A stretch of DNA of 63,832 nt, filler included, from Vannella sp. (Eukaryota), in NCBI GenBank assembly GCA_023345925.1. It is 7 parts of 7 records of this genome, joined end to end, with 100 filler letters (N's around TTAATTAATTAA, not from the genome) between each part and the next. Parts side by side here need not be neighbours in the genome. Positions count along the whole stretch, not along the records: positions 47,458 to 60,056 come from JAJQQN010000276.1; 6 more parts are not named here. The stretch is one strand, 5' to 3'. Below are positions 7,642 to 60,056 of this stretch, piece after piece (the first letter of the stretch is position 1; the number at the start of each line of letters is the position of its first letter). The notes beneath the pieces were generated by a model that saw only the letters and a list, made by a program, of their open reading frames with translations, made no database searches and was not told the DNA's origin. Both the position numbers and the translations under genes were made by a program.

Positions 7642-7690
7642 AAACCCTAACCCCAAAAATGCCCCATCTCACCAACCCTAAACCCTAACC
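7642..7690. promoter_or_regulatory. Telo-box-like AAACCCTA motifs in the bidirectional promoter between DOCK and enoyl-CoA hydratase
   Basis: AAACCCTAA at 7642-7650 and AACCCTAAACCCTAACC at 7674-7690, between divergent ATGs at 7608 and 7703. Confidence 0.55.
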
Positions 7691-8279: not shown

Positions 8280-8379
8280 NNNNNNNNNNNNNNNNNNNNN
8301 NNNNNNNNNNNNNNNNNNNNNNNTTAATTAATTAANNNNNNNNNNNNNNNNNNNNNNNNNNNNNNNNNNNNNNNNNNNN
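8280..8379. other. Artificial contig linker
   Basis: N44-TTAATTAATTAA-N44, with stops in all six frames. Confidence 0.98.
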
Positions 8380-11300: not shown

Positions 11301-14300
11301 ATTTAAAGACAAAGTAGCAGCCCGCTGACAGCGGTCATTAGCTGTGCTAATACGACTAATTGAGAGACTGAACAATCCGCGTTCCTCTTCTGTACTTCCT
11401 GAGATGGCAACAAATAGTTCAATGTCACTTAGCTCTGATAAAGTTACAAGTCCACGCGTTCCAAACGCACATTTGCCGGGAAATATATCAAATCCTATTG
11501 GAAGGCAACCTCGATTCAAACAAGATCCCGAGAAAGCAGAAACTTGTGCATTGAACTCAGTCAGGGATGAACAAGTGTTGATTTCAGTGAGCCCTCGGCC
11601 AATGTATCTGAAGAACATCACAGAACCGAATCCAGGAGGTACACAGAGCTGGTCTTTGATCGTTCCGAAGAAGTGCCTGCTTGTGTTGCCACTGATTGGA
11701 AGGGAGTGATGTACGAGCTCGGATTTTTCACAGACATCGTTGGACTCTATCACAGGAAGCTCCTCGACGGTAAGAGTGACAGAAGTCATTTGTCTGTTCT
11801 GCCACTCCGGTGTGTCCAGCAGAACCAAAAGGAGTCGGTCTTGACTGGTACTGCCGAATGTGACAAACTGTCCATCAGCAACGGATCCAAAGCATTCCGG
11901 GCCTCCTTCTCGGTCATTAAACAAGGCTACTTTGATCGTTGGGTCGGACAAGATGACCCACACTTTCTGATAGTCAAGCTGAGGAGAAAACGAGAGCATT
12001 TGCAGAAATACTGTAGCGTTGGAATAGCAATCCACAGGAAACCCATAATCTGACAAGACCTTAGGACCAGTAGTTCCTAATGTGATCTTTTCTCTTGTGT
12101 GGATCCGAAGTCCCAGCTGGCTGAGAGATGGCTGCTTCACTTGCAATGTGAACAAGCTGGCTTCATTGGGATTTACAGCACCCACATAAACCACGAAATC
12201 ACTAACAAGCAGGTTGAGGATGAAGCAAGGGCTTCCAAAGTTACCGATTGTGCTTGTGACACACGTTTGACAATTCTTGTCCGTAACGTCGATATAATAG
12301 GAATATGAGGGTTCTGCCGAGCATAGCTTGACCTCTGTTTTGGATGGATAGGAGCTGTTATGCCTGAATGTCAGTGGATAGAGGATGAGGGAGCAAGGGC
12401 TTGCGTTGCCCAGCAGAGCTTGAGACGGATCTCCTATGATGGGTCGATTGTTTACCAGTAATATTGCATTACTGCAATTGGTGTTGGTTGCTCGAGAGGC
12501 GATGGAAGTGCGGAGTTGGAAAGGTCCTGCCGAATTCTCAAAACCGTAGACCACCACAGTGAGGATGCTTCCTGCAGGAGTGCGAGGTGAGTCCAATTGA
12601 AGCCTTACTGTTGATCCTGTTCCACAGCCTGGAGAGTCGTCTTCCTCATTGAGACACTCTAAATAGCGACAGGTCCCTCTGAAGAGTGCCAGATAGGTGT
12701 CCATTCCTACACTCCCACAAGTACTAAACGTCACGGAGGCAACGTCTACCGGCACTTCAAATTGATAAAAAAGAGCCGGAGACTTGTAAGGGAGCCCACA
12801 AATAGGGAGATCAGATGCAAGCGTGAGAGATCCTCTCGTATCACCTGTCACTGTAGTTCCAGAAGTTATCATCTTGGCAGCAGAACAGTTGCTGTTAGCA
12901 GGATTTTGTGTGATTGTAAGAGGCTCTTTTTTCACAATAATCTGGAACTGTATCTCCTGAGGCTGCTCGGGAGCCGCCAGGATAATCAGAAGTTGGAACG
13001 GGTTTTCGTCAGCCGGAATGATTGTTAGAGGGTCAGAGCAATCAGTGTATCCTGAATTAAGGCAATTCAAGCTCCCACAACCATTTGAAGAGTTAAACAC
13101 TGAAATAGAAACATTCCCGCCTGTGTGGGAACCGCAGGTTTCGATCACATACTCGAATGGGCCTCCAGGAATGGTGATTCCGAAGTATTCCGCGTTCCAG
13201 CCAAGACCTACTCCTCCACAACTCGAATTAGTCACCAAAGTGCCTGAGAAATTGGTCAAAAGGCTCCCCTCGATGAGCTGACTGAATGCCAGGGGCGCAG
13301 GAACTTGACAAGATGAACCACCAAAGGCTTTTTCAGACACAGTCAGAGTAAATGGAGCAGCTCCTATGTTTGGAGTGAAGCGTGATTGGACACCGACGTA
13401 GAGGACTGTTCCAAAGGGGAACTGGTCCCCGAGATTGAATGAAAGACGGCCTTGTGTATCGCAGCCATTCATATTGGCTCCCAAACAGGTCAATGCGCTG
13501 CAATTGCCGGAAAAAAGGCTGACTGAAGTGATCTTTTTTGTTCGGTCACAGGTACTGATGTCCAGGCGAGCCAAAGGGTTATTCACAACATATCGGAAGA
13601 ACTCGATTGGATAATCAGATAGCAGTGCTGGAGAACAAGCCGGTATGTTTGTTAAAAGTCTCAGTAAATTAGTTCCGTCAGGGAGTCCATGCACTGGTCG
13701 GTTGGGAAAGAGAAGAGACGCATTTTCGCATGGCTCAAGATCTTTTTCTACTCCTCCATACTGATAGTCTGCAAGGGTTTCACTCACTTGGAGGAGAAAC
13801 TGCCCTTCTGCTCCATTCCCTCCCCCAATAACAAAGTACACATCAGAGCCTTGAGGGAAAACTGGATCAGGATTGTTGACTGGAGGAGCTTGGAATTCGA
13901 CTCGCGCTCCCATGTTTCCACAGGCGTTATCAACGAAACTATCTCCACGAAGAAGAAACGCTCCATCAAATACTTTCACCTGCACCTGAGTGGCCGATCC
14001 ACAAGTCGTGGCAAAGAGACCGCTCGCTTTCCCCTCTATTCGGAAGCGGAAAACAGCTACCCGCCCGGGAAGGTACGGACTTATGAGAGGCTCACTGTTG
14101 GGCGGGGATGTGGACGTGTTCCCGCTTATTGGGATGCCGTTTCGCAAGACAGTGGCACTAGAGAAGTTGTAGGCAGATTCGGTGAGGGAATACTCCGAAA
14201 AGACAAATTCAGCAATGCCAGTGGTTAATACCGCCACGTAAAACTCGGTCCCAGGGGCCACTGGTTCGATTATGGCCATGCAGGTTGAGACATTGCTTGC

Positions 14301-16202
14301 ACAAAAGAGTGCATTGCAGGAGCCACTGTAAACAACAACCCTTGGATTGTCTTGACTATTATCGTTTGTGCAAACACTAACAATCACTTGATTACTGGTT
14401 ATGCCAGACGTGAAGTTGAACAGAACAAGATTCTCTCCCAATCTATTGGGAACGGAGAGATCTATTGGGCACGAAGGGAGTCCTAGTGAATTCAAGGTCG
14501 CTTGATTGGTGGTAGCTTTGAATTGTCTGTTGCTTGATGTGGCAGTTGCTGTGACGTTGCAAAAGAGGGGTTCAGTCGGGACTTCGTCCACCAGCAACTC
14601 AAATCTGCTTGCAAAGTTTCCCTGCACCGCCAGAAGAAGCACAGTACCGGATGCGCGAGAGGAAAAGGTGGCGTCTGAACCGACCCAACACGCCAGCAAA
14701 TTGGAGATCGGGACGAAGCCATTACAAACACCTTCAATGATCCCCACCGTTGGAAAGCCAATCGCGTTATGACAAAGGGATGCTACTACGGTACTCGACA
14801 TGAACTTGGTGACATATTGATACCAGAGAACACGGGAGAATGAAACTGGTGATCCAGTAGAGCGGAGATCTCCCGCAATGGGAATGTGATCTTGAATCAC
14901 TTGTGGTCGGTTGCAATTGTCGTTGATTAAAACAACTGATTCTGCTTTGAATGGAATCAACGAGCGAGATTGATAACTTTGGACCGCCACCACTACTTCT
15001 GTACCAGGCAGAAGAGAAGTTACCAGAAGTGATTGGCCAGAATGTAGACAGCCAGTGGGCTTTTCGGTTGCGTAGCACTGTAAAGCCTCACAACCGCCAG
15101 TGAAAAGATTGATGTATCCTCCTCCAAGAGTTGAGCGGGCTGGGTCAATCGAACAGGAAGAAAAGCGGGTGGGACCTTGGATGGTGTACTGGAAGAAGTA
15201 AGTGATTCCGTCCAGCAGTTGGCTACAAGGAAGTGCTTTGGAACGGTTTGCTGAAAATGACGTTGGGAAGTCTCCCAGAGTGTATAGTAGACCCTCCTTT
15301 GCCTGGATGGCGTCTTCACACACAAGGTTCTCCGTCAATGGTATAATCTCCTCACCTCTGGAGCTTACGAAGGAGACAGACGAAGGCGGAACAGCATTCA
15401 GAATGGCAATAAGCAGTTGTTCCCCGGCTGGAAATGTTTGCTGAGGATGTCTCGGCATGTCACTAGCGTCCTCAAAGAAGTAAATAGACTCAGAGCAAGT
15501 TGGTTGGGCGCAGGCATTCCGGTAGATGACCACAACCAAGGGAAACGCAGTCGATGGATAGCTAGAGAACTCAAAAAGGAGCTCTCTGTGATTCTCTACG
15601 GGTGTATAGATGCCAATTTGCAATACATTGGGGTATTCAGAGATGCAATTGGGTATACCGTAGTCGTTCACATGGAAATAACGATCTGGAGAGATTTGAG
15701 TCTGTGTAATTGATTGCATTTTCGGCAAAGAACTGCATAAAGGCTCCTCCTCCACAAGCAAAGTGAAGATAAGACCTCCTTGAATGATTGATTGCACCGC
15801 CAACACAAAACTCGAAGAGAGTGAAGGTGCAATGACCAGTTTTGGCTGGCTCGTGCTGCAATCATTACGTACATCGATCAGAGGGCATCCAACGCTGTTG
15901 CACGTGGAGTTCAAGAAGATATCCAGACCAATGGCAACAGGGTTTGTCACGTTGCACAAGGAGACCAAGGTAGGGAGAGCTCGATGAATGGGGTCATAGA
16001 AATAGAAACCAGCAGAGTGCGGAGTTGGAGGAGAAGCACAGGCTCCAAACAGAAGATCCAGTGCTCCAGGGCTTTGTGTTATGGTTGCTCCTGTGGTGAG
16101 TCCAAGCCCAATCCTTTGGAAGTTGTATAGGATTGGGCACTGTGCAGAGACAAGGGCCAGGAAGATTAACAGCATGAACAAAGACACAGTAACAGACCGC
16201 AT
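8380..16202 (-). CDS. Giant (>2600 aa) secreted or surface protein: about 18 Cys-containing ~135-aa repeats plus a Ser/Thr-rich stalk; 3' truncated
   Basis: Single uninterrupted ORF with signal peptide MRSVTVSLFMLLIFLALVSA. Recurrent NxxCxxA..GxT...F.F...STC...DT.L.V+.G.C..L.C..DD motif. S/T/P stalk from about 8775 to the contig end. Confidence 0.88.
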
Positions 16203-16673
16203 GGTTCAACAGCAAGTGATGACAGCAAACCGGACACAGACCCTTTCCTGGAGATTTTGCGGACAATTCCAGTAAGCTGTGGCGCGATCAAAAGCCGATC
16301 TGAGGACTATATTTGGCTCTCAGCTTTGAGACCAAATCTACTTCCCCATTGTCACATCGGGCAAGCGAGGTGACAACAGTCAACGGTAGACTCCCTTCTT
16401 GTGCATGAGGTGCGCAATGCGAGAGTCGCTCATCTCCAGCACGAGCCAGCGTTTGTGTTGTAGTCAATGGTGTTTGCCTTCGTGCGGCTCCAGAACATCC
16501 TCCCCTTCCCTACCCAAGACCGATCCCGCTCAAAGAAACGGTTGGCTCCCTCCTAACTCCCCCGTCTCTCTCTAAAGTGAATGGGGAACGGAAAATCGCT
16601 TACATTCACAAAGAAGAGGCAAAACAAAGGAAGGGCAAAACCAAAGGTGCTTGCTGAAGGTGCTTCACCAGGT

Positions 16674-25836: not shown

Positions 25837-25936
25837 NNNNNNNNNNNNNNNNNNNNNNNNNNNNNNNNNNNNNNNNNNNNTTAATTAATTAANNNNNNNN
25901 NNNNNNNNNNNNNNNNNNNNNNNNNNNNNNNNNNNN
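25837..25936. other. Artificial contig linker
   Basis: N44-TTAATTAATTAA-N44. Confidence 0.98.
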
Positions 25937-28900
25937 CTGGGAGAGGAGGTCAAAGGATGGATCCACAAGGCGGGGTACGGGATCGTCGACGAGCAAACCC
26001 AGGGGATCGCTCAAGCACTGCTGGATGCGGGTGATCTGGTCCCTTTCCAAGCCACCAGCCCGGAGAGAGAACTCAGTGGGACCTTCAGAGAAGAGGAGAG
26101 CTACTACCTTTACTTTCCTACTCTTTCGTCCTCCTTCAAGGTTCACAGTCTTCTGACCCCTTTCTCGGGGTCTTCTTCCATCCTCATCTATGCAAAGGAT
26201 GACTACAAGGAGATGATCCTTGCCAAATGGTTCAAGAAGGTGAACGACACGGAGGTTCGGTGTTTGTTGCGAGAAGCTCGTCTCCTCTCCTCCCTCCGGA
26301 ACCCTGGATCTCCTGTCATCAACTCCATCAATCGCACAGATTCGTTCTTCCTGGCACAAAGGCGTTGGGAAGGAGGAGCGCCTCTCCTCGTTCGCATATA
26401 CGAGAAGGAGAATGACGAGGATCTGATTATCAAGCTGCTAGAGAAGGCGTGTGCCATCATTGAGACTTACCACAATGCTAACGTTGTTTGTGGTCGTCTC
26501 ACACTGAAGAGTATCTTTGCTGGTGTGGATGGAACGCTCACAGAACGCACCGCAATCAAGTTGCTGGATACTGAGCATTTGACCCAGCTGGGCGATGATG
26601 CTATGGACTTGCCAGCACCTCCTTTGACCCTATTTTCTGCCCCAGAACTCTTCGGGAACCCTTCAGCTCGCCCCACCACAGCCTCGGACATGTGGAGTTT
26701 GGGGGTTTGCATGTATTGGCTCCTTTATGGCGGCCCGCCTTTCATCTGTTTGGACCTTTCTCTCATCCCCAGCTTGATGTCTCAACCGTTGTCTCTTCCA
26801 CCAGTGGAAACTTCCCTTTTGTCGAAGATCATTCCCAGGTTGGTTTCTATTCAACCGAACAGTCGAATGAAGATTAAGGACGTGATGAAGCTGCTTCGCC
26901 AACACAAGTCAGCAGACACTACTAACCTTGTTCCGTGTCCTTACAATGCGTGGCGGTCCATTTCGTGCTCACAGATGTGCTGTGACCAAGAAGAGGAGGT
27001 TTATTGTCCCACCTCAGTGACTGAGAGCACGAAAAATGGACTCCGTTCACTCCTTGGTCGCTCAAAACCGAAGAGTAGTGTGTCCAAGGATCAATCAGAA
27101 CTTCGTCCCATTGAAATCGGGATTTGCAGTAACTCTCGCGAATCAACAAAAGACTTGATGGGTGTTTTTGGTCTCGTTCAACACATGGAAGAGAATGACC
27201 AGTACGAAACATACACCAACAATGAGCTTCGTGTTCGTTTTCATGCAATCGATGCTCACTGCTTGGAATGGGATTCGAACTTCGCATTATTGACTCGCAT
27301 TTACTACTTGGTGGACCTCTCTAAGGTTGCACCTCATGATGAACATGACAAAATGGGCCTGAAGGACTCCGTAGCGGCGTTCAGAAGGCTCTACCACTCA
27401 GAGAGGTTCTTTGATCAAAACCGCACAGCGCTTTACAACATTCCAATCACCATCATCTTCGCGAATTGTTTCCAATTCAAGTCCCTGTGGAGGATTCACT
27501 TGGAGGATTTCAGCAAACTAGGAGTGAAGGGAGACTCATTCGACGAGGCTATTCAATATCTGGATGAGATGTTCCTTTCGATTATTCAGCTCACTCCCAC
27601 TCCTCGTGTTGTCCAGACCAGTTTCCTTTTGGGAGCTACGAAAGAGGGCGTTTTGGAAATCGTGACCAATGACGCAAACGAATATCGTGTCAAGTGTGAG
27701 CCAAAGGATTTCGACCAAATGGTAACTCGAGTGGTGCAGGGGAAGATTGCAAGTGTGAACCTCAGTTTCCCATTCTTCCAATCCAAGAGCAAGCTCACCC
27801 AGTTCTCTGCCCTGCGTGATGCCCTTAGCGATTTCCAGTCTGTAATTAGGGAGTTGAATATCACTAATCTCGGCCTCAAAGACAAGGAACTTGCCTTCCT
27901 TTATGATTCACTCCAAACCAACGCTTCCTTAGTGACTTTGAATCTCTCTCGAAATCCTTTTGGAGACTGTGGTATGGCGGCACTAAGTAGGGCATTACGG
28001 AACCATAGCGCTCTGGAGGTGCTTATCTTAGTTGATGTGGGAATGACCAGTGCTGGTGCCGCCCAGATAGCTTCCATCATCTCCACACTTACTCGCTTGA
28101 AAGTGTTGGATGTCTCTCGGAATCGCGTGGGAGATGAAGGCTGCATTGAGATCGCAGAGATGCTCCACTGTAATGACAGCCTTGAAGAGCTTCATATGCA
28201 AGATTGTGGGCTTTTTGAAGCGGGATTCCTGGCGCTCTGCTCAGTCCTCGAGATTCAACCTCTTCGCGTCCTCAATCTCAACTACAACGTGATTCCCTCC
28301 TACATGATACGGGCCATGTTATCCTCTTTGCGTGTTGGTATGGCATCCCATCCGATACGAATCATTCTTCAAAAGTTGTGCGAGAGGCGAATTCTCGATC
28401 AATACTTATCCAAACACCAGAGCCGGTACGAGAAGCACGAAGCAGCGTCCTTTTCGTATGACCCAATCAAAGTTACTTCGATTGCAAAGGTTGAAGAGCT
28501 TCTCATTGACTACCTGGAAACAGTGTCACAAAAGTACAACGACCAGCTGGACTTTTCGTTCTGCCGCCTCCCTCACTTTACTTTGGTGCCATCTTGGGAC
28601 TTTCTTGACACAATTGTGTCTCTGAATCTCAACAACAACCAACTCAAACTCTTCCCACCGGCTATTGGGGGCTTGAGAGGGCTCCGGAGCCTTTCTCTCG
28701 CTCACAATAAGATAACCTCTATTGCTGGAATAGAGACTATGGTGGGTTTAGAGCGACTCATTCTCAACCACAACAAGCTGGAAAAGATCTCCCAAGTCGC
28801 CCGGTTGACCCGATTACAGTATTTGGATGCCCGGCATAACATCCTCCGGGCGCCTCCTGAATTAAGTGACCATTTCCAGCTGCAGCATCTCCTTTTCGAC

Positions 28901-31900
28901 TGCAATGAGCTTCTCCGAGTGCCTTACTACATATTCACACTCCCCAAGCTCCGGAACTTTTCGATAATGCGGAATCGGGTGGTCACCAGTCGCGCAATAA
29001 TCATTGGGGCTTGGTCTCGAAACCTTCGCATCCTCAACCTCTCTCGATTGAACATTTCCTATTTACCAAAGGAGATCGGTCAGATGGATAGTCTGATTGA
29101 CTTGAATCTCAGCAAGAATAAGCTGTCTTATATCATCCCCCAGCTAGGCATATTGGCGAATCTACGAGTCCTCGACCTCAGTGATAATGCCCTTGAGAGT
29201 CCGCTCTCTATGTTACCTTTGGCAAAGCTCAATCTCTCATTTATCAACATGCGGGGGAACGACAAACTACCGCATTCAATGATGGGAACTGCTGCTGAAG
29301 TGAAGGCGTTTTTACAGGCTGAAGTTGACAAAATAGGGCCATTTACAGAGATACGGCGTGCCAAGGTGGTTCTTGTTGGAAAGGAGGACGTCGGAAAGAC
29401 TGTGGTGTCCCAAATGCTTCGCACGCCTCGGAGACAAAGGAAAAAGTTGGGTATATCACTTGCTAGCGCTGATGCACAACCTTCCAGCAACATTACCATT
29501 CATGAGTGGACGCCTTGTCCCAAAACAGACCCAACCCAGGTGTTAACTATCTGGGATATGGCTGGTGCGTCAGTCTACCACACAACGCACGCTTTCTTCC
29601 TCGAAGAACGTTCTATTTATCTGGTCTTCTTTGACTTGGCGTTTCCTATCAGTGAGAAGGAGAGACGACGAGAAGACTTGTTTACAAAGCAATCCGTTCT
29701 CACTTGGTTGGAGATGATAGCCGCCAGTGCCCCAAACAGTCCAGTCATCCTCGTCGGAACTCACGCAAATGATCTCTCAGAAGAGGCATTGGAGGTTCTC
29801 GGTCCTGCTCTCGTGGAGAAGTACGGTTCCAAGTACCCTCAAATAGCCAGTTTCATTTCCATCAATGCTTTGGATGCTTCTGATATCGAGACTTTGGAGG
29901 GAATCATTCTGGATGTATTCCATAAGCAATCCTTTGCATCCCAGAAGTTCCTGCATGGGTATCACGATCTTGTTCTCTCCATTATGACCGAGAGAACGTT
30001 GAATAATCCGCCATTTGCTAGTCTTGGCGAGTTTGAGCGGATGGTCATCGACTGTGGTATTGAAGGTTCAGCTCAAACTGTTGCAGAGTATCTTAATCAA
30101 ATGGGCATCATCTCTTACTTTAACGACAAGAAGCTGGGCATTTCTTCCAATGTGGTGCTGGATCCCACATGGCTGATTAATCTCATCTCAACAGTCATCG
30201 CTTCTGGGGATAACGGCATTGAGAAGGGGGTTTTCTTTCACAGTCAAATGGCGAAAATTTGGGTCAACTACCCGCCCTCTTTGTATCCTTTCCTCGTGAA
30301 TCTCTTCAATCAGATCGAACTCATTTTTACTCATCCCCATCCTGACCCTAAAAAGGGGACTTACAGTCTCATTCCGTCCATGTTCAGCACTTCAAGCCTC
30401 GGAGCGCAGAGCAAGTTCATTCCCGTTGATGACTATCTCGCACTGGGCTTTGGTACTCAACTGGAGAGGGTTTACCAGTTCGATTTCCTTCCTTTTGGCT
30501 TCTTCTCACGACTGGTTGTTCGCCTTCTCCACTTTACCACTCTTTCATTTGCTTGGAAGAGTGGATTAGTATGCAGTAGCGGGGAGCAAATCGCTCGCAT
30601 TGAAATCGAAATGAACTCTGAAGTGAGCGTGAAGGTACGCGGAAATAACCCTGCCAAGCTCATGCGCATGATTGTCGAGAACATTGACCTCCTCCTGGCC
30701 GGTTGGTACGATAGCCGACCCAAAGTTCTTGTTCCTTTCGTGCTGACAGGCTCGCACGTGGACAATCTGGTGGACTATTACTTCTCCCTGGAAGAGCTCG
30801 AGGAGGCTGCAGCTTTCAGTCAAACAGTAGTTAACTTTGATGTTTCTTCTCATCGCCAGGGTGGTCTTAAAACTGGCAGGAGAGGCACAGTTAGCTCTCC
30901 TCCCCAGATTATTCCCATTCGCATTGACTCTGTGGCACCTGACCTTGTCATGGCCGATGTCTCTGAACTGCTTATGAAGTGGGAGGATCTCGAGATAGAA
31001 AAGCAGATTGGCCAGGGGGCCTTTGGTATCGTTTATGCGGCCAAATACAAAGGGCGGCGCGTTGCTGTCAAGCTCATTGAAGTGGAGAAGAACATGAAGG
31101 TGGAAGCGTACGGTGAATTCCGCCGTGAAGTCGCCCTGTGCAGTGAACTCAAACATCCTGCCATTGTGGAGTTATGTGGTGTATGCTTAGACCCCTGGGG
31201 CTTAGCTCTGGAGTTTATGCCCCATGGAGACCTCTTTAGCTTCCTCCAAAAGAGGGAGAATGTGATCACCTGGAAGATGCGTCTCCAAATAGCCTTCAAC
31301 ATTGCCGAGGCTGTCCGTTTCCTTCACAGCTTCCAACCAAAGATTATCCACCGTGACCTTAAATCTCCCAACTGCCTGGTAAGTCACACTATTGCCATCT
31401 CCCTGTCATTCTTGGACACTCTCTACGCTCACTAACACTAATCCATCCCCAGATGGCAAGCATAGACCCTAATGCTGAATATCTTGTCAAAGTCACCGAC
31501 TTTGGAGAGAGCCGAGCTGTTGCCACTTCCTACACTGGAAGGGACCGACTTCACAATCCTGGTATGTTATTGACTTGAAAGACTCTTTCCTCCCGACTGA
31601 CTGGATGGCGCGAAAGTGTGGCTTGCACCAGAGATTATGAAAAAGGAGCAGTATACTGAGAAAGCTGACGTCTTTAGCTTTGGCATTATCATGTGGGAGC
31701 TCATCGGCCGAGCGGTTCCTTTCTCCGAGTACGAGATTGCCCAGTCTGCCTTCACCTACCAACTGGAAGATGCCATCATTGGCGGGTTACGCCCGACTGT
31801 TCCAGAAGGACAGTTCTGCCCTCACGGATGGATAGCCCTGATGGAAGCGTGTTGGAGTGGTGACCCCAAAGCGCGCCCTCAGTTCGAGGACATTTCCAAG

Positions 31901-31954
31901 CGCATTCGCCGCATCCAGGACTCGATTAGTCCGAAGATCGCTGATAGTACATAG
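25937..31954 (+). CDS. Roco kinase: DEP-like, pseudokinase, G-alpha-like, LRRs, ROC, COR, TKL kinase (5' truncated)
   Basis: Frame open from 25937. ROC KVVLVGKEDVGKT, IWDMAG, ILVGTH; COR VVLDPTWL; kinase IGQGAFG, HRDLKSPN, VTDFG, WLAPE. Introns 31379-31452 and 31562-31616. Confidence 0.92.
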
Positions 31955-47457: not shown

Positions 47458-48612
47458 GCCAGTGAATGAAGCGCAGTCTCTACCATCCTCAGCGCTTGAG
47501 CTAACTCGGGAGGGACGCGACTTCTCTCCGACATGGCCCTGGACCAGAGGTTACAATATAATAGCATTTGGATTCTTACTCCACTTTGATTCCAATTTTG
47601 TGAAAGGCTGGTCGGCAAGGGAGGGTTTGGCTTCGAGTTAGCGTTTAAGGGATCGGAGCTTGTTCAAGGCTTGATAAGGGATCCCTCTGAACTCAAGTCA
47701 TCACGGAGGGTAGGCTTATGCGTACAGCTTTGGACGTTCGGGGATGAAACTTCTGAGGCTCCAAGGAGAAGTGGTCTCATGTCTCGAGGACTGCCGCCCT
47801 AGTCAAGACGAGAATCAAGATCACAGGCAGGGCCCTTCCTATCTCCAACCTTCTTGTCCAAACCTTTGGAGAGGCGCTATCCCAGGAGGTCTCCCAAGTC
47901 CGGACATGGCAAAATGAGATGAGCCTCGATCCCATAATTGCGAACTTTTGCTTCTCTTCCAGATGTGCAAGCAGAACAAAGAACCAATGAACAGGAAAAG
48001 AATGATTTCATTCTGTCCTTGGTCCACTCCAAAGCAGGTTCATCCTGAAGGGTGCGTTCATGTTGCTCTTCTCGAAGGTGGATCATGTCGATAGTTACCG
48101 AGCCGATAGGACTGAGATAGCCTCTTATAGGTCGATGGTTACAAGGTACCTTAGCAATATCGGGCTGTTGGCTCTGTTTGGGAACCGGCAAAGGACAAGC
48201 TGGCCGTTGAACCAGTTCACCTTCGGCTGTTCTCCAGCGAGATCCGTTCTTTCTTAGTTTCCCGAGCCGAGAGAACTGTCGTCGATGTAGACTGACAGGC
48301 AAACGGCATCGCAGGCGACTCTCCATCAGAGTGGGACTCCTTCGAGTAACTTTCCTCACTGGAGAACGTCCCGTTATCCTCCAGCCTGGCAGAAACAGCA
48401 TTCCTGTTCATACTTATCGATCATATCAAGAGAACAAGCTCGACGGACCACAGGAAACGAAGATCAAAGGTCCCTTTTGATGAATGCGGTGTGGCCTGGC
48501 TTCTGAACCACATCCAGATGATGATGAGTCACTCTGACCAAAGATGAGACCTCACAAGATGTGACAAAGGCACTTAGAGGGCCACTTTCATTGTTTCTGG
48601 GCCTCTTCGACG

Positions 48613-50556
48613 ATGAGGTGCTTGGCCTTGCTCTTCTGCGGAGTGGTGTGGGCCAGTACTGGCATCCTGGACAGATACTTGCTTGAGATGGAAGGTGGAG
48701 ATCGCTTCTCTTGCGAGAAAATGGCAGGAGTGCCCATCACATGGACTTCCCCCTTGGGCGCGTGTGGATTAGACTCGAGGACGTACTTTAACCAGATGGG
48801 GAACAGTACAATGACTTCTTACTTGCAGTGTCTTATCAAAGGTATCGGTAAACCCTTCAAGAACGTCGGTATTGCCTATCCAGGGAGCTGCGGGTGCCCC
48901 AACTTCTGTAACAACGCCACCTTGCAAGGGAACTGCATAGAGAACCAATGCCAGTGTAACAGTGGTTGGGAAGGAGTTGATTGTAGTCAAAGTAAGCTCT
49001 TCTATCCCTCTCCGAGGGAACCCTTCTCACCTACTCCGGAAAGTCGCCAGTGATAACACCTGCAGTGGAGTGGGGCGAGTGGTTACCATTGAGAACATTA
49101 ACACCTGTGAATGTCCCACTGGAAGGAGCATGAGCGACTGCTCAGCGAGTGTAGGGAACATCCCAGCATTGACTCAAGTGATAGTTCCTGTCCAACAGTA
49201 CTCTGACAAGGAGGAATACGGCAACGATAACCCCATCTTCGATAGGAGTGTCATTGCTCAGATCCATCTCACTATGCCACCAGAGTTCCTCACTTATCAG
49301 CAAGAACCTGGCAACAGCGATACTGAAGAGTACTTAGTAAGTGGAGGGTCTTGAGAAGCGGAGGTAGAAGGCTGACGTCACCCGGTAGCCAGTGACAATG
49401 GCATTCTACAACGGGGTGACAACTCAAGTATTGGACAAAGTTGGATTCCGGTTGAAAGGACATGCTTCTCGGCGCTACGTCAAGAAAACCTTCAAATTAT
49501 CCTTCAGCAAGTTTGTTACGGACAGGAAATGGGCTCAGCAAAAGAAGCTGGAGCTCAAGGCCATGCAACAGGATGTTTCTGCTTTGAAGGAAGGAACATG
49601 TCTCGATTTGCTTTACTCGCTTAACGCTCCTGCTCAGCGTTATGGGTATGCTGAGCTATTCATTAATGGTCAGAGTATGGGAGCCTATCTGATGCTTGAG
49701 AGTCTGGATGATCAATTCCTTGATTCTCGGCTTGGAAATGACAAAGGTGCCTTTTACAAGTGCCGTGGAACATTGGAGTATCTTGGAATGGACCCTGAGC
49801 TTTATCGTAATGCCACTTCGACAGATGGTGACTTGGCGTATGGACCAGAGAATGAAGCTGCTTTGGATTACACCCTCCTTCGAGATCTGATCCGTACCAT
49901 CAACGCTACTGACAGGATCTTCGTCAACTCTCTTCGTGCGTACTTCTTTTTGGTTAGAGACTGTTCTAACATACTTGACAGCTCAATATCTTGATGTGGA
50001 TTTGTATGCCAGAACTTTGGCTTTTGAAGTTATGACAGGAAACTGGGATGGGCTCAGAAACGCTAATAACTACTTCTTGTACTATAACAAGGAATCTCGA
50101 GTCTTCCAGTACCTGAGACATGATGTTGAGATCTCTTTTGGCATTTGGAATACCTACGTCGAGATGGCTCTCTTCCCTGTTTATACTTGGGGAGAGGGTG
50201 CCCGTGGTTATCGTCTCATTAACCGATTCCTTGCAACCCAGCCATTCCGAGGACTGTTCACGAAGTATTGCCACCAATTGATAGCCCAATCTCTCCATCC
50301 AGGACTTGGAAGTTTCCTTTCGAAAGTGACGGCAACGAATCAAGAACTCCGTCCGCTCATCCGCAAAGATCAATGGCGCTTTACTGACTTGGCTTTCAGC
50401 TATGATCAGTTTCTTAATTTCCCTATCAAAGGATTTGCCCTCCCAACCGGAGAGAACTTTCAAAGTACCATCCCCGCCGTTCGCACCCTTGGAATCGAAG
50501 AATTCTTGATTCTCCGCGTAGAAAGTGCCCTCAGCCAGCTGGACAGTCCCATGTAG
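48613..50556 (+). CDS. Secreted EGF-like plus CotH kinase-domain protein, multi-exon
   Basis: Signal peptide; CQCNSGWEGVDCS EGF motif; CotH motifs FRLKGHASR..KKTFKLSF, YAELFINGQSMGAYLMLESLDDQFL, GNWDG..NANNYFLY, HDVEISFG. Confidence 0.85.
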
Positions 50557-50886
50557 ATCCGAATAGACTCTCTTTGACAAAAAACCGTTCTGCAGAATGT
50601 GGATGAAACGGACTTTGGATGTTGTCAGTCACTGGCAACAGGCATCCCATTTACTCTCTTTGCAGTTCATCCTGTATCCTTCATTTGGGCAAGACTATAC
50701 CTTTAGCTAACACATCAGATTATCCCAAACTCCATTCTGCAACCGGCTGGGCTTAGTTGTAGGAGTAGAGCAACCAATTCAGTGCTTCTTCTGAATGCTC
50801 TTGAGTATTTCTGATGAGGAAAGCCAATTTGGCGCCTTTAAGAATGACTTCATTGACCATGTTGCATCGGAAGACAACTTTCTTGG

Positions 50887-52211
50887 TTAAGACAACAGAC
50901 ATTTGGTTTGTTCCTTTGGAACCATCACGGGATAATGGTATGGTGGATAGCGATCCATGATTTCGATTGAATAGTCTATCAAGGTGCAAGACTGAGTGAT
51001 GTTCAAGGAAGTTCTGCAGGAAATCTCCAAAAATGGTATGCGGAGTTCTTCAGCAAACTCTTGTGCTGTGCGATAGTCGACGGCCCTCTCTGTTTCCAGG
51101 TCTGCTTTGTTGCCAATCAAGATCTTGTGGACGTTTTTCCTTCCAGAACGGTCAACGTTCCCTAACCATCTCGGTACGCTCTGAAAAGAATGCTGATTCG
51201 TGATATCATAGAAGATGATTACTAAGTGAGCTTCTTGGTACCGACGTGTTCCAACAATATCATTGGCGGTTCGGGCTCTCACTGAAGCATCGTCGAACTC
51301 CAGCTTGACATACTGGCCCCTAACGCGGATGTGCTTGTAATGGCGGCAGCGGACATGGAAGCCATCCTCCGTCAGAGCTATAAAGGATGTGATGCCAACA
51401 TCTAGCTCGCCCAACAGCAGGACTCTGTACACAGGAGTACGAATCTAGGGAGGGTCAGAGTTTCCATTTCCTTTGATGTTGCGACGGGCTACCTGTTCAA
51501 GGCCGCCCGCACTAGTCAACATCTCCAGGATCTTCCCTTCGGTTTCTTTGTTTCTCCCTCTTTTGGCTGCATTCAGAGGTGTCTAACATCATGAATTCGT
51601 CTCTCTTTCTGATCCTCTGTAGTTTACCTCTCTCTAAACTCATTAATAAGCTGTCCACCCTCCCTATTGAGAAGCCTCACTCCTTTGTTGACATCAATTG
51701 CCCGAAAAGAGAGCAAATACTCGACCAATCCAACCTCTCCCCGGCCAGCTGCGAGTCCAAGAAAGGTCTGAAAAGGTGATGTCACGCCGTGTTCCGGTCA
51801 GGAGGAGACTTACCCGCTATTTCCCCCCTTTCTGTGAACTCTGGTCTCGTCATTGAGACGACATCACCCACTCCCTTTCGATTGGCGATTAGTTTCACTT
51901 TGTTTTGGAGATAATGAGCTTATTGAGCTCACATTCTTCTGCTCAGATGCGCTGAGTGGAGGTCAGCTATTCCAAATGGACTTACTGCCTGCGCAGTGGA
52001 CAGCCGGTGAGTTAATCTTGTTTCTACTCCATTCTAGATACCTACTTCCAAAATGACAGCCTTTGGTGAGACGCGAATCCTTCTCCCTGACGTCAACCGC
52101 AGAAACGAGCCATCTTACGTGATTCAACCTCTCTGGATAAGCCTCCAGGTAAGCTCTCAGCACCGGTATCGTCCAACAGGTCCTCCCATCCCAACGATCA
52201 GGGGCGGCCAT
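50887..52211 (-). CDS. Ankyrin repeats plus degenerate Rab1-like GTPase with CaaX; 10 exons including 6 microexons (predicted 287 aa)
   Basis: Exons 52211-52119, 52060-52046, 51988-51986, 51938-51933, 51874-51872, 51816-51814, 51767-51681, 51633-51628, 51582-51493, 51444-50887. Ankyrin KNGRTFLGLAAGRGEVGLVEYLLSFRAIDVNKGRETPL; Rab YDITN..SF, LIGNKADL; C-terminal CLLS. Confidence 0.72.
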
Positions 52212-52232
52212 GAGAAAATGATTCGAACTGGA

Positions 52233-52266
52233 AGGGTTTAGGGTCAATCACTAGGGTTTAGGGTTT
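52233..52266. promoter_or_regulatory. Telo-box-like TTTAGGG motifs in the 100-bp bidirectional promoter between ank-Rab and BIR-U-box genes
   Basis: AGGGTTTAGGG at 52233-52243 and TAGGGTTTAGGGTTT at 52252-52266, between ATGs at 52211 and 52312. Confidence 0.55.
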
Positions 52267-52311
52267 GTGAAAAGGTGAAGTGAGGGTACAGTCATTTTTT
52301 GGGGGTCTTGG

Positions 52312-53451
52312 ATGGCTGACAATGAGCAGAGTAGATTGGAGACATTCCAGGCATTAGGGTGGCCTCACCCAGCAACGCACAAAGCAACCCCTGCGAAGCT
52401 TGCTGCTTCTGGGTTCTTCTTGGTTCCGACCAACGAACATCCCGACAGGACCGTCTGCTATTGCTGTGGGGTTGGCCTTGTCAACTGGAGTGCCAACTCT
52501 GACCCTTGGTATGCAAATGAGCCCCCTCCGTCGTGGATACCCTCCTCACCATCTAACAGGGAAGAACACATCCGTCGGTCGCCTACCTGCGGTCTAGTGA
52601 CGGGCCATCACGCCAACTTCAAGTCAGAAATAGCTCGCTTTGAGAGCTTCGTGCACTGGTAAACTCTCTATCCTAAGCACAGCGAGCGCATCCTCAATTC
52701 CTCAAGGCCGCATCCTGAAACGTTCCAAGCGACCCCTGAGAAGCTTGCTAAGGCTGGCTTCTTCTTGCTTCCGAGAGATCCCTTTCATGACCGAGCGGTG
52801 TGCTTCTGTTGTGGCCTTGCTCTCGTGCAATGGGACCCTTCTGATGATCCTTGGTGAGTGACGAGTACAAACCTCTTGATACAGCGCCCTCTCACCTCTG
52901 ACATAGGACTGAGCATCAAACACACTCCAAAACATGTGCATTCGTCCGCCAAGAATCAACAGGGAACGTTCCCCTCTCCTGTAAGGACCAATGTCACCCG
53001 TTCTTGCCTCCCAGCTCACCTTGACCTCTTCCAGCTGACCCTGAGGAGAAGAGCAAGTCCTCTTTACAGCAAATGATCATTCGCGTGCGCCAATTGGGAG
53101 TGGATCCTGCAAACAATGCACCAACATGTTTCCTGTGCCCAATCATGCAGGTCAGTCCTTCCTCCCTCTTCCTTCAGAGAGTGCTAACCACCCACCCACC
53201 AAAAGGACATCTACACAGATCCAGTCGTGGCAGAAGACGGTCACACGTACGAGAAGTTTGCCATCAAAAAGTGGCTGGAGAACCACAACACCTCTCCCTT
53301 GACGAACAAGAAGCTCTATTCCAAGCGTCTGATCCCCAACCACAACCTGAACACCCAAATCCTGGACTACGTCGAGGCCCTCGTCGTGAAACACAACCTC
53401 CACACTGGCCTCGACTCCTCCAGCCCCGGAATGTATGGCTATGCCTCCTAA
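52312..53451 (+). CDS. IAP-like protein: two BIR domains plus a U-box (predicted 292 aa, 6 exons)
   Basis: BIR1 RLETF..WP..LAASGF..CYCC..W..DPWEEH..SPTC; BIR2 RFESF.HWP..LAKAGF..CFCC..W..DDPWTEH..SKTC; U-box FLCPIMQDIYTDPVVAEDGHTYEKFAIKKWL..TSPLTN..LIPNHNL. Introns 52509-52559, 52659-52706, 52854-52906, 52981-53034, 53151-53205. Confidence 0.9.
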
Positions 53452-53610
53452 AGAGCGGAGAAGTCTCACAGAGGTAGACCTTCTTGTACATTCTCGTACT
53501 TGGACATGGAGAGGTTCATTGCTCTTTGAAGGAATCTCAGAGGGGAAGGAGAGGGAAGGGGCTGGTGGAACACAACTCCTTGGACAAAGGAAGAGAGAGA
53601 GGGGCAGCTT

Positions 53611-54312
53611 CTACAGCAAGACGCAGCAGCTGCTGTCAGCTGTCTTCATAAACGCCTTCGATTGGTAGCTGAGCTCTGCAGAACTGTCCATCAAGTCCTC
53701 AAGTCTGATAGAGAAGGCATCAGCAAGGGATGAAAAGGATGATGGTGACTCACTTCTCCCCTCTCTCGAGGAGCTGGTCGATGGACTTGATCAAAATCTC
53801 TTTCGTCTCGCCTAAGTCCTTGTTGATCTTAGCGATGTCATCTGTGGGGCGACTGGTTAGTACTACCCTGTGTGAGTCTCCAGAAAGCCGCGTGGCGCAC
53901 CTGCTTGCTCGGGGTCTTGGTATTTGGTCAGGAGAACTTGCAGTTGGGGGGTTGGGAGGTCGGTGGGAGTGTTGATAGACTTCCATTGTTCACCGTGAAC
54001 GTTGGTGAAGCCCAGAAGGCACTTAAGCATGAAGCTCTGGGCGACTCGTTGGGGATAACTCTCGTCTGTACAAACAGCAATGGCTAATCCGTCGTGCTTG
54101 ACGATTACATGACACATGTGTTCTTTGTGTAGCACTGCGTGTCGATCCCCAGCCTTTGAATGAGATACAGCTTGTCCACTAACGAACTGCAGCACTTCCT
54201 TCGCGCTTCCTTTCGTGAAGAAGTTGAACGAACTCAGTTCGAATGCTGAGGCAATAGGGATAGGCTTCTCTGCACTCCACTTGTACACAATAACACAAAA
54301 CAACTGCACCAT
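53611..54312 (-). CDS. YKT6: YKT6 longin R-SNARE
   Basis: ELSSFNFF, YPQRVA, LLTKYQDP, ETKEILIKSIDQLLERGEK, FYKTA-like segment, C-terminal CCVLL. Confidence 0.9.
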
Positions 54313-54478
54313 GCAGAAAGGCACCAGGAAATGCTCCCTCTCCCACTTCACCTTCGCCCCCAACCCGTTCGCCGATTTGCCGACTTTTCCCGTTCTCCGA
54401 TCTCACCCGCTTTTAAAATCTTTTTGAGCGGCGGAATGACGATGGGACGCATATTTGCTTTTTGAGGTTTTGTGTCTA

Positions 54479-54496
54479 TTTTAGGGTTTAGGGTTT
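54479..54496. promoter_or_regulatory. Telo-box-like TTTAGGG motif in the bidirectional promoter between YKT6 and the C2 gene
   Basis: TTTTAGGGTTTAGGGTTT, ending 8 nt before ATG 54505. Confidence 0.55.
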
Positions 54497-54504
54497 CATT
54501 TCCT

Positions 54505-55780
54505 ATGCGGGGACCGGTGGTCGTGGTGCGGATCATTCGAGGGCGGGGTCTACCTGCAAAGGATAGGAACGGGTTTTCGGATCCTTATTGCACGGTGGTG
54601 TTGGCAAATGAGGACGGGACTTTCAACAAAGAGACGAGGAGGAAGACGAAGGTTGTGAAGAAGAGTTTAGATCCTCAGTGGGATGATTCCATCTCCTTGT
54701 AAGTGTCACATCTTTTCCTTCCTTTTCCCACCCTTCCCTTCGCTGGTGGGAATGACCTGGCCCTCGCAGTGACCTCTTGCCCACCCATAAGACTCTGCTT
54801 GTTCAGTGCTGGGACAAGGATCTCATCAAGAAGGACGACTTTATGGGAGAGATACGCATTCCTTTGAACGAGAACCACGAGACAACCCTGGCGTGGTATC
54901 CCCTTGGCCCTTTGGACGGAAAACCTACGAAGGGAAGCTTCTCTGGAGAGATTGAGATGAAAGTCACCTTCTTGAACGTTCCTTCACGCACACAAGACTG
55001 TTCTAATCAAAGAGATCGCTCTTGCAAGAATTACCAGTTCTTACCCGAGCAAGGAGTCTCTTGTGAGGCTTGCGATGTCACCTTCTGCTCTCTTGAATGC
55101 CACCAAAGATGGTGCAAACCAATGGAATACCTCAAGAAGATTGGCCAAGTCATCTGCCAACGTAAGGAGGCTTCTCGCTCACACTGCATCTTGATGGTCC
55201 TCTAACTTAGCAATGTAAAGGATCTCTCCAATCCACTCCAAACGGCAAGTTCCCAGATCACTGCACTCTGTCGGACCGATGCCAGTCTTATGGCAAAAAG
55301 TTGGGAGATCAACGTCTACAGGGATTGGAGGCACCCGAGGAGCTCGTTATGTTGATTACTGAGTTGTTTGAACATCTTTGTGGCCTATTTTGGTGGCCAG
55401 AATCGAAGAGTGTTGGTGAACTGAAGCGGGCGTTGACAGGAATCGACGAAGATCCCTTTTTCCCAATCTTACAGTCCGGCGCTGCTTCAGGAGCGGTGGA
55501 TGATGAGCAGTTGAAGGCAATTGCACAATGCTCTCTTTATGTGAGAACAGAGATTTTTGGAAAGTACAGCACAGAGATGACAGAATTCAATGCCCTTGTT
55601 GCCCCCTATGAGTGGAAATCACTTTTGCGAGTGCCACCAACTGCTAATGCCGATCAGAGCCTTTTAGATCGGGTTGTTTTAGGTGACCAAGCGGCCCTTG
55701 AGAAGTATTATGGTCAAGTGCAAGCTCAGCGCAAGTTGGAAGAGGATTTGGATAAAATCCGGCATCCCAGTGAGCAGTGA
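54505..55780 (+). CDS. C2-domain protein with a Cys-rich putative Zn finger and helical C-terminus, multi-exon
   Basis: GRGLPAKDRNGFSDPYC, KTKVVKKSLDPQW, CWDKDLIKKDDFMG (Ca-binding Asp residues); CEACDVTFCSLECH. Confidence 0.8.
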
Positions 55781-56061
55781 TTTGCCATTTGCGGTCAAGA
55801 AACTTCAGCGCCATTGGCTCCCTGGTCTTATGTCAAACACAAACACTTTATCCAATAATCTTCCTTCTATCTTGCTCTCATCTCATTTGGGAACTGGAAC
55901 TCTCTCTAGCTTGGCGGATTCTGGCTACACTCAAAGCTCTTGTTGGATGCATTTGTCTTGCTGCCTCAGATCTTCGTCACTGTTCTGCTGACTCAGCGTT
56001 AAGCCAGGGGATTGGTCGGTTCCGAGGGAGTTGGAGGTTCAGTTTGTGGGAGCCGGGTGCA

Positions 56062-58372
<2,311 letters not shown>

Positions 58373-58447
58373 CGAGTTAAACTCGAGCTTTGACGATAAA
58401 GCCTCAATCTTTCATTAAACTGGATTCAAGAAAGGTTCAGAAGTGAG

Positions 58448-60056
58448 TTATTCAGCCTTATCAGGCTTCAAGGGAAGGAGATTGTGAAGGAAATGTTCGA
58501 AATTTCCTTTGTGCCCTTGAACAAATGCAGGATCAAGATGGAGAGCATCTTGTTTGAATTGGTGGAATTCACCTTCTATACCATGACAGATACCACCTGG
58601 GCAAACCAAGTCATCAATCGAAGTGACAAAAACATTGTCTCTTCTCTTTGCCACTTTCAAAACGGTATCGCGGTAAACCTCCATCACTGGACAGACCTGT
58701 ACTTCCGCCTCACACTTCTTGGATACGTCTCCCACTGTGAAACAATCGCGGCCGGCGTCAGAAGGAATGGGGTGAGATAACATGATGAGAAACGCGCTTT
58801 TGGGGAAAAGGTCAAAGTACTGGTCCATTCCATAAGCGACCATATCTGGCCATTCAGGTTCTCCCACGTTTGCAAAAGGGACATCATCCGCCGATCCTAC
58901 TGGTCTCACATTGTTGTACTCGATACTACGGGTGATCAGCACAATAACGCTGGGCTTGTCCTCTGGGTTATCAGGGATCTGTACGGGCGGGCAAGCATTG
59001 ATTATCCCGAAGTTGATGTTTGGAGTGAACTTATACTCCAGGTAGAACCAAGGGCAACCATGCGTCACTTGGATTTGAGCTTCGAATCCATACTCAGCTC
59101 CAAGCTGTTGCCAAACAGGTCCCCATTCCTCTGCAAATGAATCTCCAGCCAGCAGGAACCTTCTGTTATAAGGCTCGATGCGGGTCAGAGCTGGGAATAG
59201 ACCATTGACATCCGCTTTAAGGTTCTGTGGGAGTGGCGGCTGCTCTTTGTGCACAATAATGTCGGATAGATCGTTCGATGCTTGGATCGGGAAGAATCCG
59301 ATGAAGATGAATGAGAAGACAACCACTGTAGCCAGTATTCCCAGTCCAATGGTCACCGAATCAGGGATGCGAAGTGAGCTGATTGGGCGATCAACGAGAA
59401 TGTAGGTCAGCCACGCCATAAAGATGGTGAAAAGGAGAACCTCAACGGAAGACAATACGTCAGAATGGATCAAGTTGAGCATTCTCCCAAGTCTGATGAT
59501 TGGAAAGTGCCAGAGATAGATGGCGTAAGAGTGTTTCCCCAAGAACTGGAATAAAGCACTTTTAAGCACCTTAGCAGGAAGGCTGTTATCATCCAGCTCC
59601 AATCCAACGATCAAGACCAAAGTCAAGAATGTGGAAAGAAACCCGGCATTCGTTGGGTCCACAGGTGCCAACTTGGTCGACAGCAAAAGAATGCCAAGCA
59701 GTCCTCCAAGACAGAGACTGGATCCTTGTGCATGGAAAGCCTTCGTAAGTCTTGGTGGCAAAGATCTTGGATCCAAAAGATCCAAGGTTGTGGTCAGCAT
59801 TACACCCAGAAACGCTCCTGAAAGGAGTTGATAGATTCTCATGGGAGTCGCGTAGTACCTTTGCTCCAAGGAAAGCCCGCTGTTGAAGTACTGGAGGCCA
59901 AGGGACACAAAGAAGGCAACTAAACACCCACGAGCAGTGTTTGTCGTATAGAAAGAGTTCCAGCGAAGCAGAGTGACAACAGCAAGAGGCCAAAACATGT
60001 AAAATTGTTCTTCGACGGCAAGGGACCAGTAGTGGAGGACAGGGCTGTCCCCAGCG
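58448..60056 (-). CDS. Acyltransferase-3 plus SGNH-like O-acetyltransferase (OafA/OatA architecture), 5' truncated
   Basis: SPVLHYWSLAVEEQFY.FWP, FLGKHSYAIYLWHFP, GDSFA, DLVC...C, QDALH (DxxH). Confidence 0.88.

Follow-up and report, generated by a model that had tools for sequence, protein, structure and literature searches.

Predicted codon-sized exons in the probable ankyrin hairpins of an ankyrin–Rab-like gene from Vannella sp.

A gene on the minus strand of a 63,832-nucleotide stretch of Vannella sp. DNA (assembly GCA_023345925.1; the whole of this stretch, filler included, is referred to here as the window) encodes two ankyrin repeats followed by a degenerate Rab1-like domain, and the ankyrin part of the gene contains a chain of microexons which is real and lies far beyond chance. 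The gene sits in the segment at 47458–60056, within a series of N-linked contigs from a low-depth metagenome assembly. On balance, we consider it probable, albeit by no means secure, that the exons are real and normally all included, with variation of the loop arising mainly at the level of the DNA and with one main protein as the product. The 64-way splicing that was put forward in the original prediction is possible but unsupported. The design itself is already known; the novelty lies in its lineage, in the pairing with a Rab-like domain and in a polymorphic splice site.

Architecture of the gene and its splice signals

In its original form the model of the gene gave an open frame of 287 residues, from an ATG at 52211 to a stop at 50887. 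Exon 1 (52119–52211, minus strand, as for all features of the gene given below) has 31 codons and is a predicted N-terminal cap, the last residue of which is the Asn that opens hairpin 1; taken alone it is without a Pfam or PDB match. Intron 1 (52049–52118) is 70 nt long in those haplotypes that carry AG at 52050–52049, having previously been drawn as 58 nt, to 52061, and it is followed by microexon 1 (52046–52048), 3 nt encoding Glu, for which allele evidence, loop length and profile score all argue in place of the earlier 15 nt (52046–52060). Intron 2 (51989–52045, 57 nt, splice score 11.3) contains four allelic differences and precedes microexon 2 (51986–51988), 3 nt encoding Ala. The 47-nt intron 3 (51939–51985) could end in frame at any of three tandem acceptors, 51942, 51939 or 51936 (scores of 9.4, 13.6 and 8.3, respectively), such that microexon 3 (51933–51938), 6 nt encoding Lys-Asn, would be 9 or 3 nt long via the neighbouring acceptors. 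Intron 4 (51875–51932, 58 nt, score 8.4) leads to microexon 4 (51872–51874), the 3 nt of which encode the conserved ankyrin Gly; intron 5 (51817–51871, 55 nt), the weakest of the first six with a score of 5.2, leads to microexon 5 (51814–51816), 3 nt encoding Arg. Microexon 5 is followed by intron 6 (51768–51813, 46 nt, score 8.3), exactly at the AG of which a paralogue diverges, and by exon 7 (51681–51767), 87 nt that encode the helix-turn-helix core of an ankyrin repeat.

In hairpin 2, the 6-nt microexon 6 (51628–51633; Arg-Glu) lies between intron 7 (51634–51680, 47 nt, score 3.4), which has a 2-nt insertion in one allele, and intron 8 (51583–51627, 45 nt, score 3.3), the retention of which would bring in an in-frame stop. 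Exon 9 (51493–51582, 90 nt) starts with TPL and encodes either a degenerate second ankyrin repeat or a C-terminal cap, the ankyrin profile aligning to its first part. Intron 9 (51445–51492, 48 nt, score 4.8) combines a weak donor with a strong branch site, and beyond it the last exon (50887–51444) encodes the Rab1-like domain. The predicted set of microexons, four of 3 nt and two of 6 nt, is confined to the two hairpins and flanked by eight of the nine introns of the gene (45–70 nt), and contributes 8 of about 283 residues. Intron lengths (58, 57, 47, 58, 55 and 46 nt in the first hairpin; 47 and 45 nt in the second), coordinates, donors and exon sequences are all present in the DNA as first described. 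Likewise, phase 0 holds throughout and the frame is open, all nine introns being of this phase as compared with 14 of the 25 reference introns drawn from the window's other genes.

These 25 introns served to train the splice model. They are of 44–57 nt, with one of 74 nt, and were chosen by eye at the junctions of open reading frames, which biases the set toward short introns, each of them joining an open frame. Their branch site is of the form YTNAY and lies mostly 10–23 nt before the acceptor; in the introns of the window a pyrimidine tract is often absent and some acceptors are AAG. In several of the reference introns, an AG too near to the branch site is skipped over. Scored on themselves, the reference introns have a mean of 10.8 and a minimum of 3.2, on which scale the first six introns of the gene reach 5.2–13.6 and introns 7–9 reach 3.3–4.8.

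On both strands of the window this is the sole chain of more than three introns with 3–15-nt exons between them, and neither a second chain nor a second ankyrin-like exon was found elsewhere in the window. Amongst 278 simulated sequences of 128 kb, the longest chain was of two in 137, of three in 132 and of four in nine, with none of five or more; moreover, dinucleotide shuffling of the 351-nt stretch (52118–51768) did not once give an in-frame tiling in 3000 attempts. Retention of any intron leads to a frame shift or a stop, and the skipping of a single microexon requires an intron of 98–130 nt, which exceeds all 25 reference introns. Two further ideas were set aside. For the window haplotype, a tiling that includes a 3-nt exon reading TAG has a better score, but TAG is a stop codon. 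That the introns arose through tandem duplication is not persuasive, as only introns 1 and 2 share a 13-base stretch (z 2.6; 1 of 36 intron pairs above z = 2).

Ankyrin loop and the inclusion of its microexons

Exon 7 alone has no Pfam match, but it has 335 protein matches at E ≤ 0.001 and resembles DARPin repeats in the PDB, where 145 sequences lie at E ≤ 10. From 149 of the 335 matching proteins, 595 loops running from Asn to Thr were collected, with lengths of 2–14 counted. Seven residues is the length of 412 of these loops, with eleven residues found in five and four residues in two. Hairpin 1 has seven residues when read as E-A-KN-G-R, and would have eleven with the 15-nt first exon. Gly is at the position of microexon 4 in 304 of the 412 seven-residue loops, and Arg is the commonest residue at that of microexon 5 (79 of 412). 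With the 3-nt first exon, hairpin 1 thus has the canonical form, with seven residues from the Asn of a DVN-type motif to the Thr of TPL and with Gly second to last. Hairpin 2 is different, since at four residues it remains three short of the canonical length even when microexon 6 is included. Four microexon residues fall at what we take to be DARPin library positions. The DARPin paratope is made up of randomised surface positions.

The ankyrin fit rests on a custom profile built from 400 ankyrin segments, by which the all-included form with a 3-nt first exon ranks first of 48 skip combinations, at 26.9 bits. The form with the 15-nt exon scores 25.2 bits and that with all microexons skipped 20.2 bits. 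Single skips give 26.5 (Glu), 26.4 (Ala), 23.0 (Lys-Asn), 21.9 (Gly) and 20.9 bits (Arg), such that the cost is 5–6 bits for Gly or Arg and below 1 bit for Glu or Ala. Two of the three tandem-acceptor variants, at 27.1 and 27.7 bits, score above the all-included form, the latter restoring seven residues when Glu is skipped, via a rare GAG acceptor. The profile therefore does not force one isoform, given the small cost of losing Glu or Ala and the existence of these two higher-scoring variants. For hairpin 2, the score is 28.7 bits with microexon 6 and 23.9 bits without.

In the reading that we favour, introns of 44–57 nt would each be recognised singly, by donor, branch site and acceptor; recognition intron by intron is established for short-intron genomes. 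An exon could in this way shrink to one codon, itself needing no recognition. Since every junction falls between codons, a change of one splice-site base would add or remove a loop residue while keeping the frame, and the window haplotype, which is without the acceptor of microexon 1, looks like a change of this kind. Variation of the loop would then reside mainly in the DNA, between alleles and paralogues, with minor skipping or choice of tandem acceptor at most, and the product would be a standard ankyrin hairpin ahead of the degenerate Rab-like domain.

A possible, if rather doubtful, alternative takes the exons to be real but skipped in varying combinations, as reported for the NACHT-ankyrin genes of truffles, to give a set of loops that recognise varied targets, for instance proteins of prey or symbionts. 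All junctions are indeed in phase 0 and the microexons occur only in the two hairpins, flanked by eight of the nine introns, yet the five exons of hairpin 1 make up exactly one canonical loop with no spares, as against the ‘tens’ or ‘dozens’ of truffles. In-frame tandem acceptors at microexon 3 are consistent with skipping, but most skip forms lie 3–7 bits lower. The family is also multi-copy, and many of the paralogue differences listed alter the amino acid; against this, the introns are not copies of one another, with the 1 in 36 pairs noted above, and no microexon codon differs among the few haplotypes that cover them. Precedents would seem to point both ways, the truffle genes being reported as alternatively spliced and the four shortest microexons of the fly gene sowah being listed as constitutive.

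The truffle precedent is that of the nank (NACHT-ankyrin) genes of Tuber melanosporum, for which 3-bp mini-exons have been described (Iotti et al. 2012, as related in PMC4986451, PMC9815663, PMC13449251 and PMC10197012); these papers speak of ‘tens’ or ‘dozens’ of codon-sized exons and report extensive alternative splicing. Like the window gene, the nank genes have multiple codon-sized exons in the ankyrin region and form an expanded family, and their exons have been proposed to vary the recognition surface. The window gene differs in having a degenerate Rab-like domain instead of NACHT (no NACHT match was obtained in the exons of the gene or in the scanned neighbours), in having six microexons rather than tens, and in its lineage. 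Furthermore, alternative splicing is reported for nank, whereas the splicing of the window gene is predicted from DNA alone.

For Drosophila sowah (FBgn0036302), Table S4 of PMC8042270 lists five microexons, four of which, ME119, ME3, ME2 and ME19 (12, 3, 3 and 6 nt), are entered as constitutive in Table S5. Sowah, likewise an ankyrin gene, shares with the window gene a series of consecutive tiny exons in which a lone Gly codon is followed by one further codon (Gly and Arg in the window gene), with introns of about 1–3 kb in sowah as against 45–70 nt. The likeness seen is one of exon layout and generic ankyrin, and the sowah microexons may form an ankyrin hairpin. To our knowledge, sowah has no known GTPase domain.

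Two other systems are more distant. The MEGs of Schistosoma have 10–20 short exons, introns of 0.1–5 kb, signal peptides and verified isoforms (10.1101/2023.06.21.545858), none of these features having been found in the window gene; they share with the window gene runs of short exons that are mostly multiples of 3, but the window gene lacks the 10–20 short exons, separated by long introns and making up most of a secreted protein, by which MEGs are defined. In brown algae, the ROCO and NB-ARC-TPR genes have one repeat per exon (PMC13449251). They have in common with the window gene a symmetric exon layout of a repeat domain, there in candidate immune receptors, and differ in that whole repeats are shuffled, whereas the window gene separates single residues of a loop. 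No earlier account of a chain of this kind, be it from an amoeba or from a gene that combines ankyrin and Rab, came up in the literature searched, which takes in few subscription journals. Given truffle nank and sowah, the gene is nevertheless less new than the original prediction implied.

Searches of JGI metagenome contigs with exon 7 and its splice-site pattern gave no match. A generic Gly-x-TPLH pattern, with short introns between the elements, had six matches in these contigs, five of them not ankyrin and one ankyrin, and none in viral contigs. The design is seen in L002, an unrelated eukaryote metagenome contig of 1502 nt and 34% GC, in which an array at 238–1433 on the minus strand consists of tandem units with two 87-nt ankyrin cores (Pfam Ank) and near-identical introns. 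Phase-0 pieces F-G-Q and N-Y-G-WK stand before the cores, the final piece of each unit having more than one possible boundary, and an extra His piece follows the second core. The units are 91% identical, yet all compared pieces except Gly differ. This comparison, of two units only, favours codon change between copies as the putative source of variety, and L002 is a stronger candidate for diversification than the window gene.

Haplotypes, paralogues and the Rab-like exon

The acceptor at 52061 that was first assigned to intron 1 has a branch score of −1.7, compared with 8.2 for the 70-nt intron ending at 52049; in the 58-nt form only 6 nt separate the branch site from the AAG, a tighter spacing than that of the reference introns, and this branch site suits an acceptor at 52049. 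AG occurs at 52050–52049 in three contigs from two runs (two of X1 and one of X3), the site in one of the X1 contigs being only 4 nt from the contig end, and the window has TG. The X3 contig represents the same locus, since it continues into the neighbouring BIR gene. In the AG haplotypes the 15-nt exon would contain a stop codon, and the 3-nt exon encodes Glu. A 595-nt contig of X2, possibly the source of the window, has the window's letter at this site. The model is amended in one respect: microexons that build ankyrin hairpins and are joined to a Rab-like exon are well supported, but the first microexon is probably 3 nt (Glu, 52048–52046) and not 15 nt. At least three haplotypes of the locus exist across three biofilm DNA runs of one study.

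One base, at 52050 on the minus strand, separates the haplotypes, that of the window lacking the acceptor of microexon 1. AG is presumably the functional state, with this acceptor having been lost from the window haplotype. Without it, the canonical form cannot be made through 52049, and the window allele, if functional, must involve some skipping or alternative acceptor use at this point.

Under the 3-nt model, all ten of the allelic differences listed from three contig stretches lie in introns (P about 5e-4 for a uniform distribution), with one further substitution in these stretches lying outside the listed ten. Intron 9 has three allelic differences and the flanking exon bases none in 136. 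Alleles of the Rab exon differ by seven substitutions, four of them non-synonymous, and by one 3-nt indel. The stretch itself is reproduced by contigs of three runs, one of which spans 51713–52286 without a difference and comes from a run that is possibly the source.

Paralogue matches stop at predicted splice sites, in a comparison that covers exons 1 and 7 and in which the loose contig ends, of 30 letters, are short of the microexons. For exon 1, a paralogous contig matches 52113–52193 with 13 differences in 81 nt and ends with the donor. For exon 7 there are three: the match to the first coincides with the exon, its acceptor and 8 bases of intron, with 18 differences in 97 nt; that to the second includes some intron; and that to the third breaks into a GT donor one codon earlier, exon 7 of one paralogue appearing to end a codon earlier. 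In partial lists of these differences, the amino acid is altered in five of six and four of six changed codons. Small shares of runs X4 and X5 yielded no contigs and a single match, of 34 nt. Deep contigs match intron 4 over 36 nt (51893–51928), but the flanks are unrelated and the match is regarded as fortuitous. No relative of the 57-residue frame around exon 7 was found among longer proteins (0 of 53 candidates), nor were relatives of exon 7 found in plasmids.

By sequence, the last exon has the Ras-family fold (PF00071, E = 2e-24), its named best matches being Rab1, Ypt1 and Rab8 at 30–36% identity. With respect to the motifs of an active GTPase, the P-loop lysine (GK[ST]) and DTAGQ (DxxGQ) are both replaced and NKxD is kept; a CaaX-like motif is found at the C-terminal end. 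The loss of GTPase motifs and the CaaX-like end would suggest a membrane-anchored adaptor or decoy in place of an active GTPase. The P-loop lysine and DTAGQ are also replaced in the relatives P0002, P0009 and P0015, which together with the window exon make up a small Rab1-derived family with CaaX-like ends, known only from ENA assemblies. The called N-terminus of P0002 resembles a read-through of the same intron as in the window gene. There is no in-frame ATG near the start of the last exon, which therefore requires an upstream exon; no full-length spliced relative was present among the 120 Rab matches listed, eight of which were inspected.

AAACCCT-type repeats lie in the gap to the BIR gene (52235–52266, minus strand), 25–55 nt upstream of the ATG, and there is none near 51522. 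They are a probable promoter or 5′ leader mark; telomere-like repeats of this kind before genes are presumably akin to plant telo-boxes. Similar repeats also lie just upstream of other gene starts, at 7642–7687 (plus strand) and 54482–54496 (minus strand), where they are in tandem, and at 61606 (plus strand).

It is distinctly improbable that the arrangement is a relic, in the sense of a decaying allele, or of an ankyrin part that is untranslated, with the Rab exon read from an ATG near 51522 or reached across a 351-nt intron. The window haplotype is indeed without its first acceptor, but splice signals are intact in all six introns, and exons 1, 7 and 9 are avoided by the allelic differences. 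Translation from the in-frame ATG at 51522 would begin with a short Rab N-terminus of the ordinary kind, and P0002 is called from a Met similarly placed, yet the promoter-type repeat precedes 52211 and not 51522, and joining exon 1 directly to exon 7 removes the hairpin (20.2 as against 26.9 bits). The lost GTPase motifs and the residue changes at four of seven allelic substitutions in the Rab exon are consistent with decay, against which stand conserved paralogues for both exon 1 and exon 7. That GT and AG, common as they are, fell into this order by chance in non-coding DNA, or that a low-depth metagenome assembly joined by linkers produced it as an artefact, is very improbable indeed in the face of the null tests (0 of 278 and 0 of 3000), of the contigs from three runs that reproduce the stretch and of a loop read-out that fits ankyrin residue preferences.

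Genomic neighbourhood and implications

The window has a GC content near 49% and few introns, and in this it resembles Echinamoeba silvestris, for which PMC10980511 gives 47.8% GC and 0.9 introns per gene. Head to head with the ankyrin-Rab gene, and about 100 bases from it, is a gene for two BIR-like repeats and a U-box (52279–53400, plus strand); tail to tail with it is a CotH kinase gene with an EGF-like domain (48565–50556, plus strand). Further along, an Arf-family GTPase is fused to about 570 residues consisting of three similar units with no Pfam match (56040–58372, plus strand). On the minus strand at 8328–16205, an intron-free frame of 2625 codons opens with a signal-like segment, contains numerous repeats with cysteines and closes with a region rich in serine and threonine, its product being a probable surface protein. 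The gene at 25889–31954 (plus strand) is for a ROCO protein that has LRRs, Roc-COR and a C-terminal kinase and, in addition, a further kinase domain at its N terminus. The window also encodes a family C GPCR and a kinase bearing SH2 at its C terminus, and the three together point to Amoebozoa.

Genes of the ankyrin-Rab type escape ordinary gene callers: in public collections this one is represented only by two separate proteins, one from the Rab exon and the other a scrap of exon 7 read through into intron. The short introns place the whole cassette within one 600-base amplicon, and the AG and TG haplotypes provide a natural experiment on the loss of an acceptor within a microexon chain. The question at stake is whether codon-sized ankyrin exons diversify a protein, as claimed for truffles, or are a constitutive architecture, as in fly sowah.

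Speculatively, and in our estimation unlikely as a whole, this would be a family of membrane-anchored ankyrin-pseudo-Rab proteins of amoeba-like protists, arisen independently of truffles, in which the binding loop is rewritten codon by codon, per cell through exon skipping and tandem acceptors and in the population through one-base splice-site polymorphisms, so as to provide a repertoire of sensors or decoys against Rab1-targeting bacterial effectors, with the Gly-x-Thr split in sowah and L002 as a recurrent design. If this were true, that split would mark the ankyrin hairpin as a recurrent site across eukaryotes, and if the isoforms prove to be many, splicing-based receptor diversification would reach a third eukaryotic lineage.
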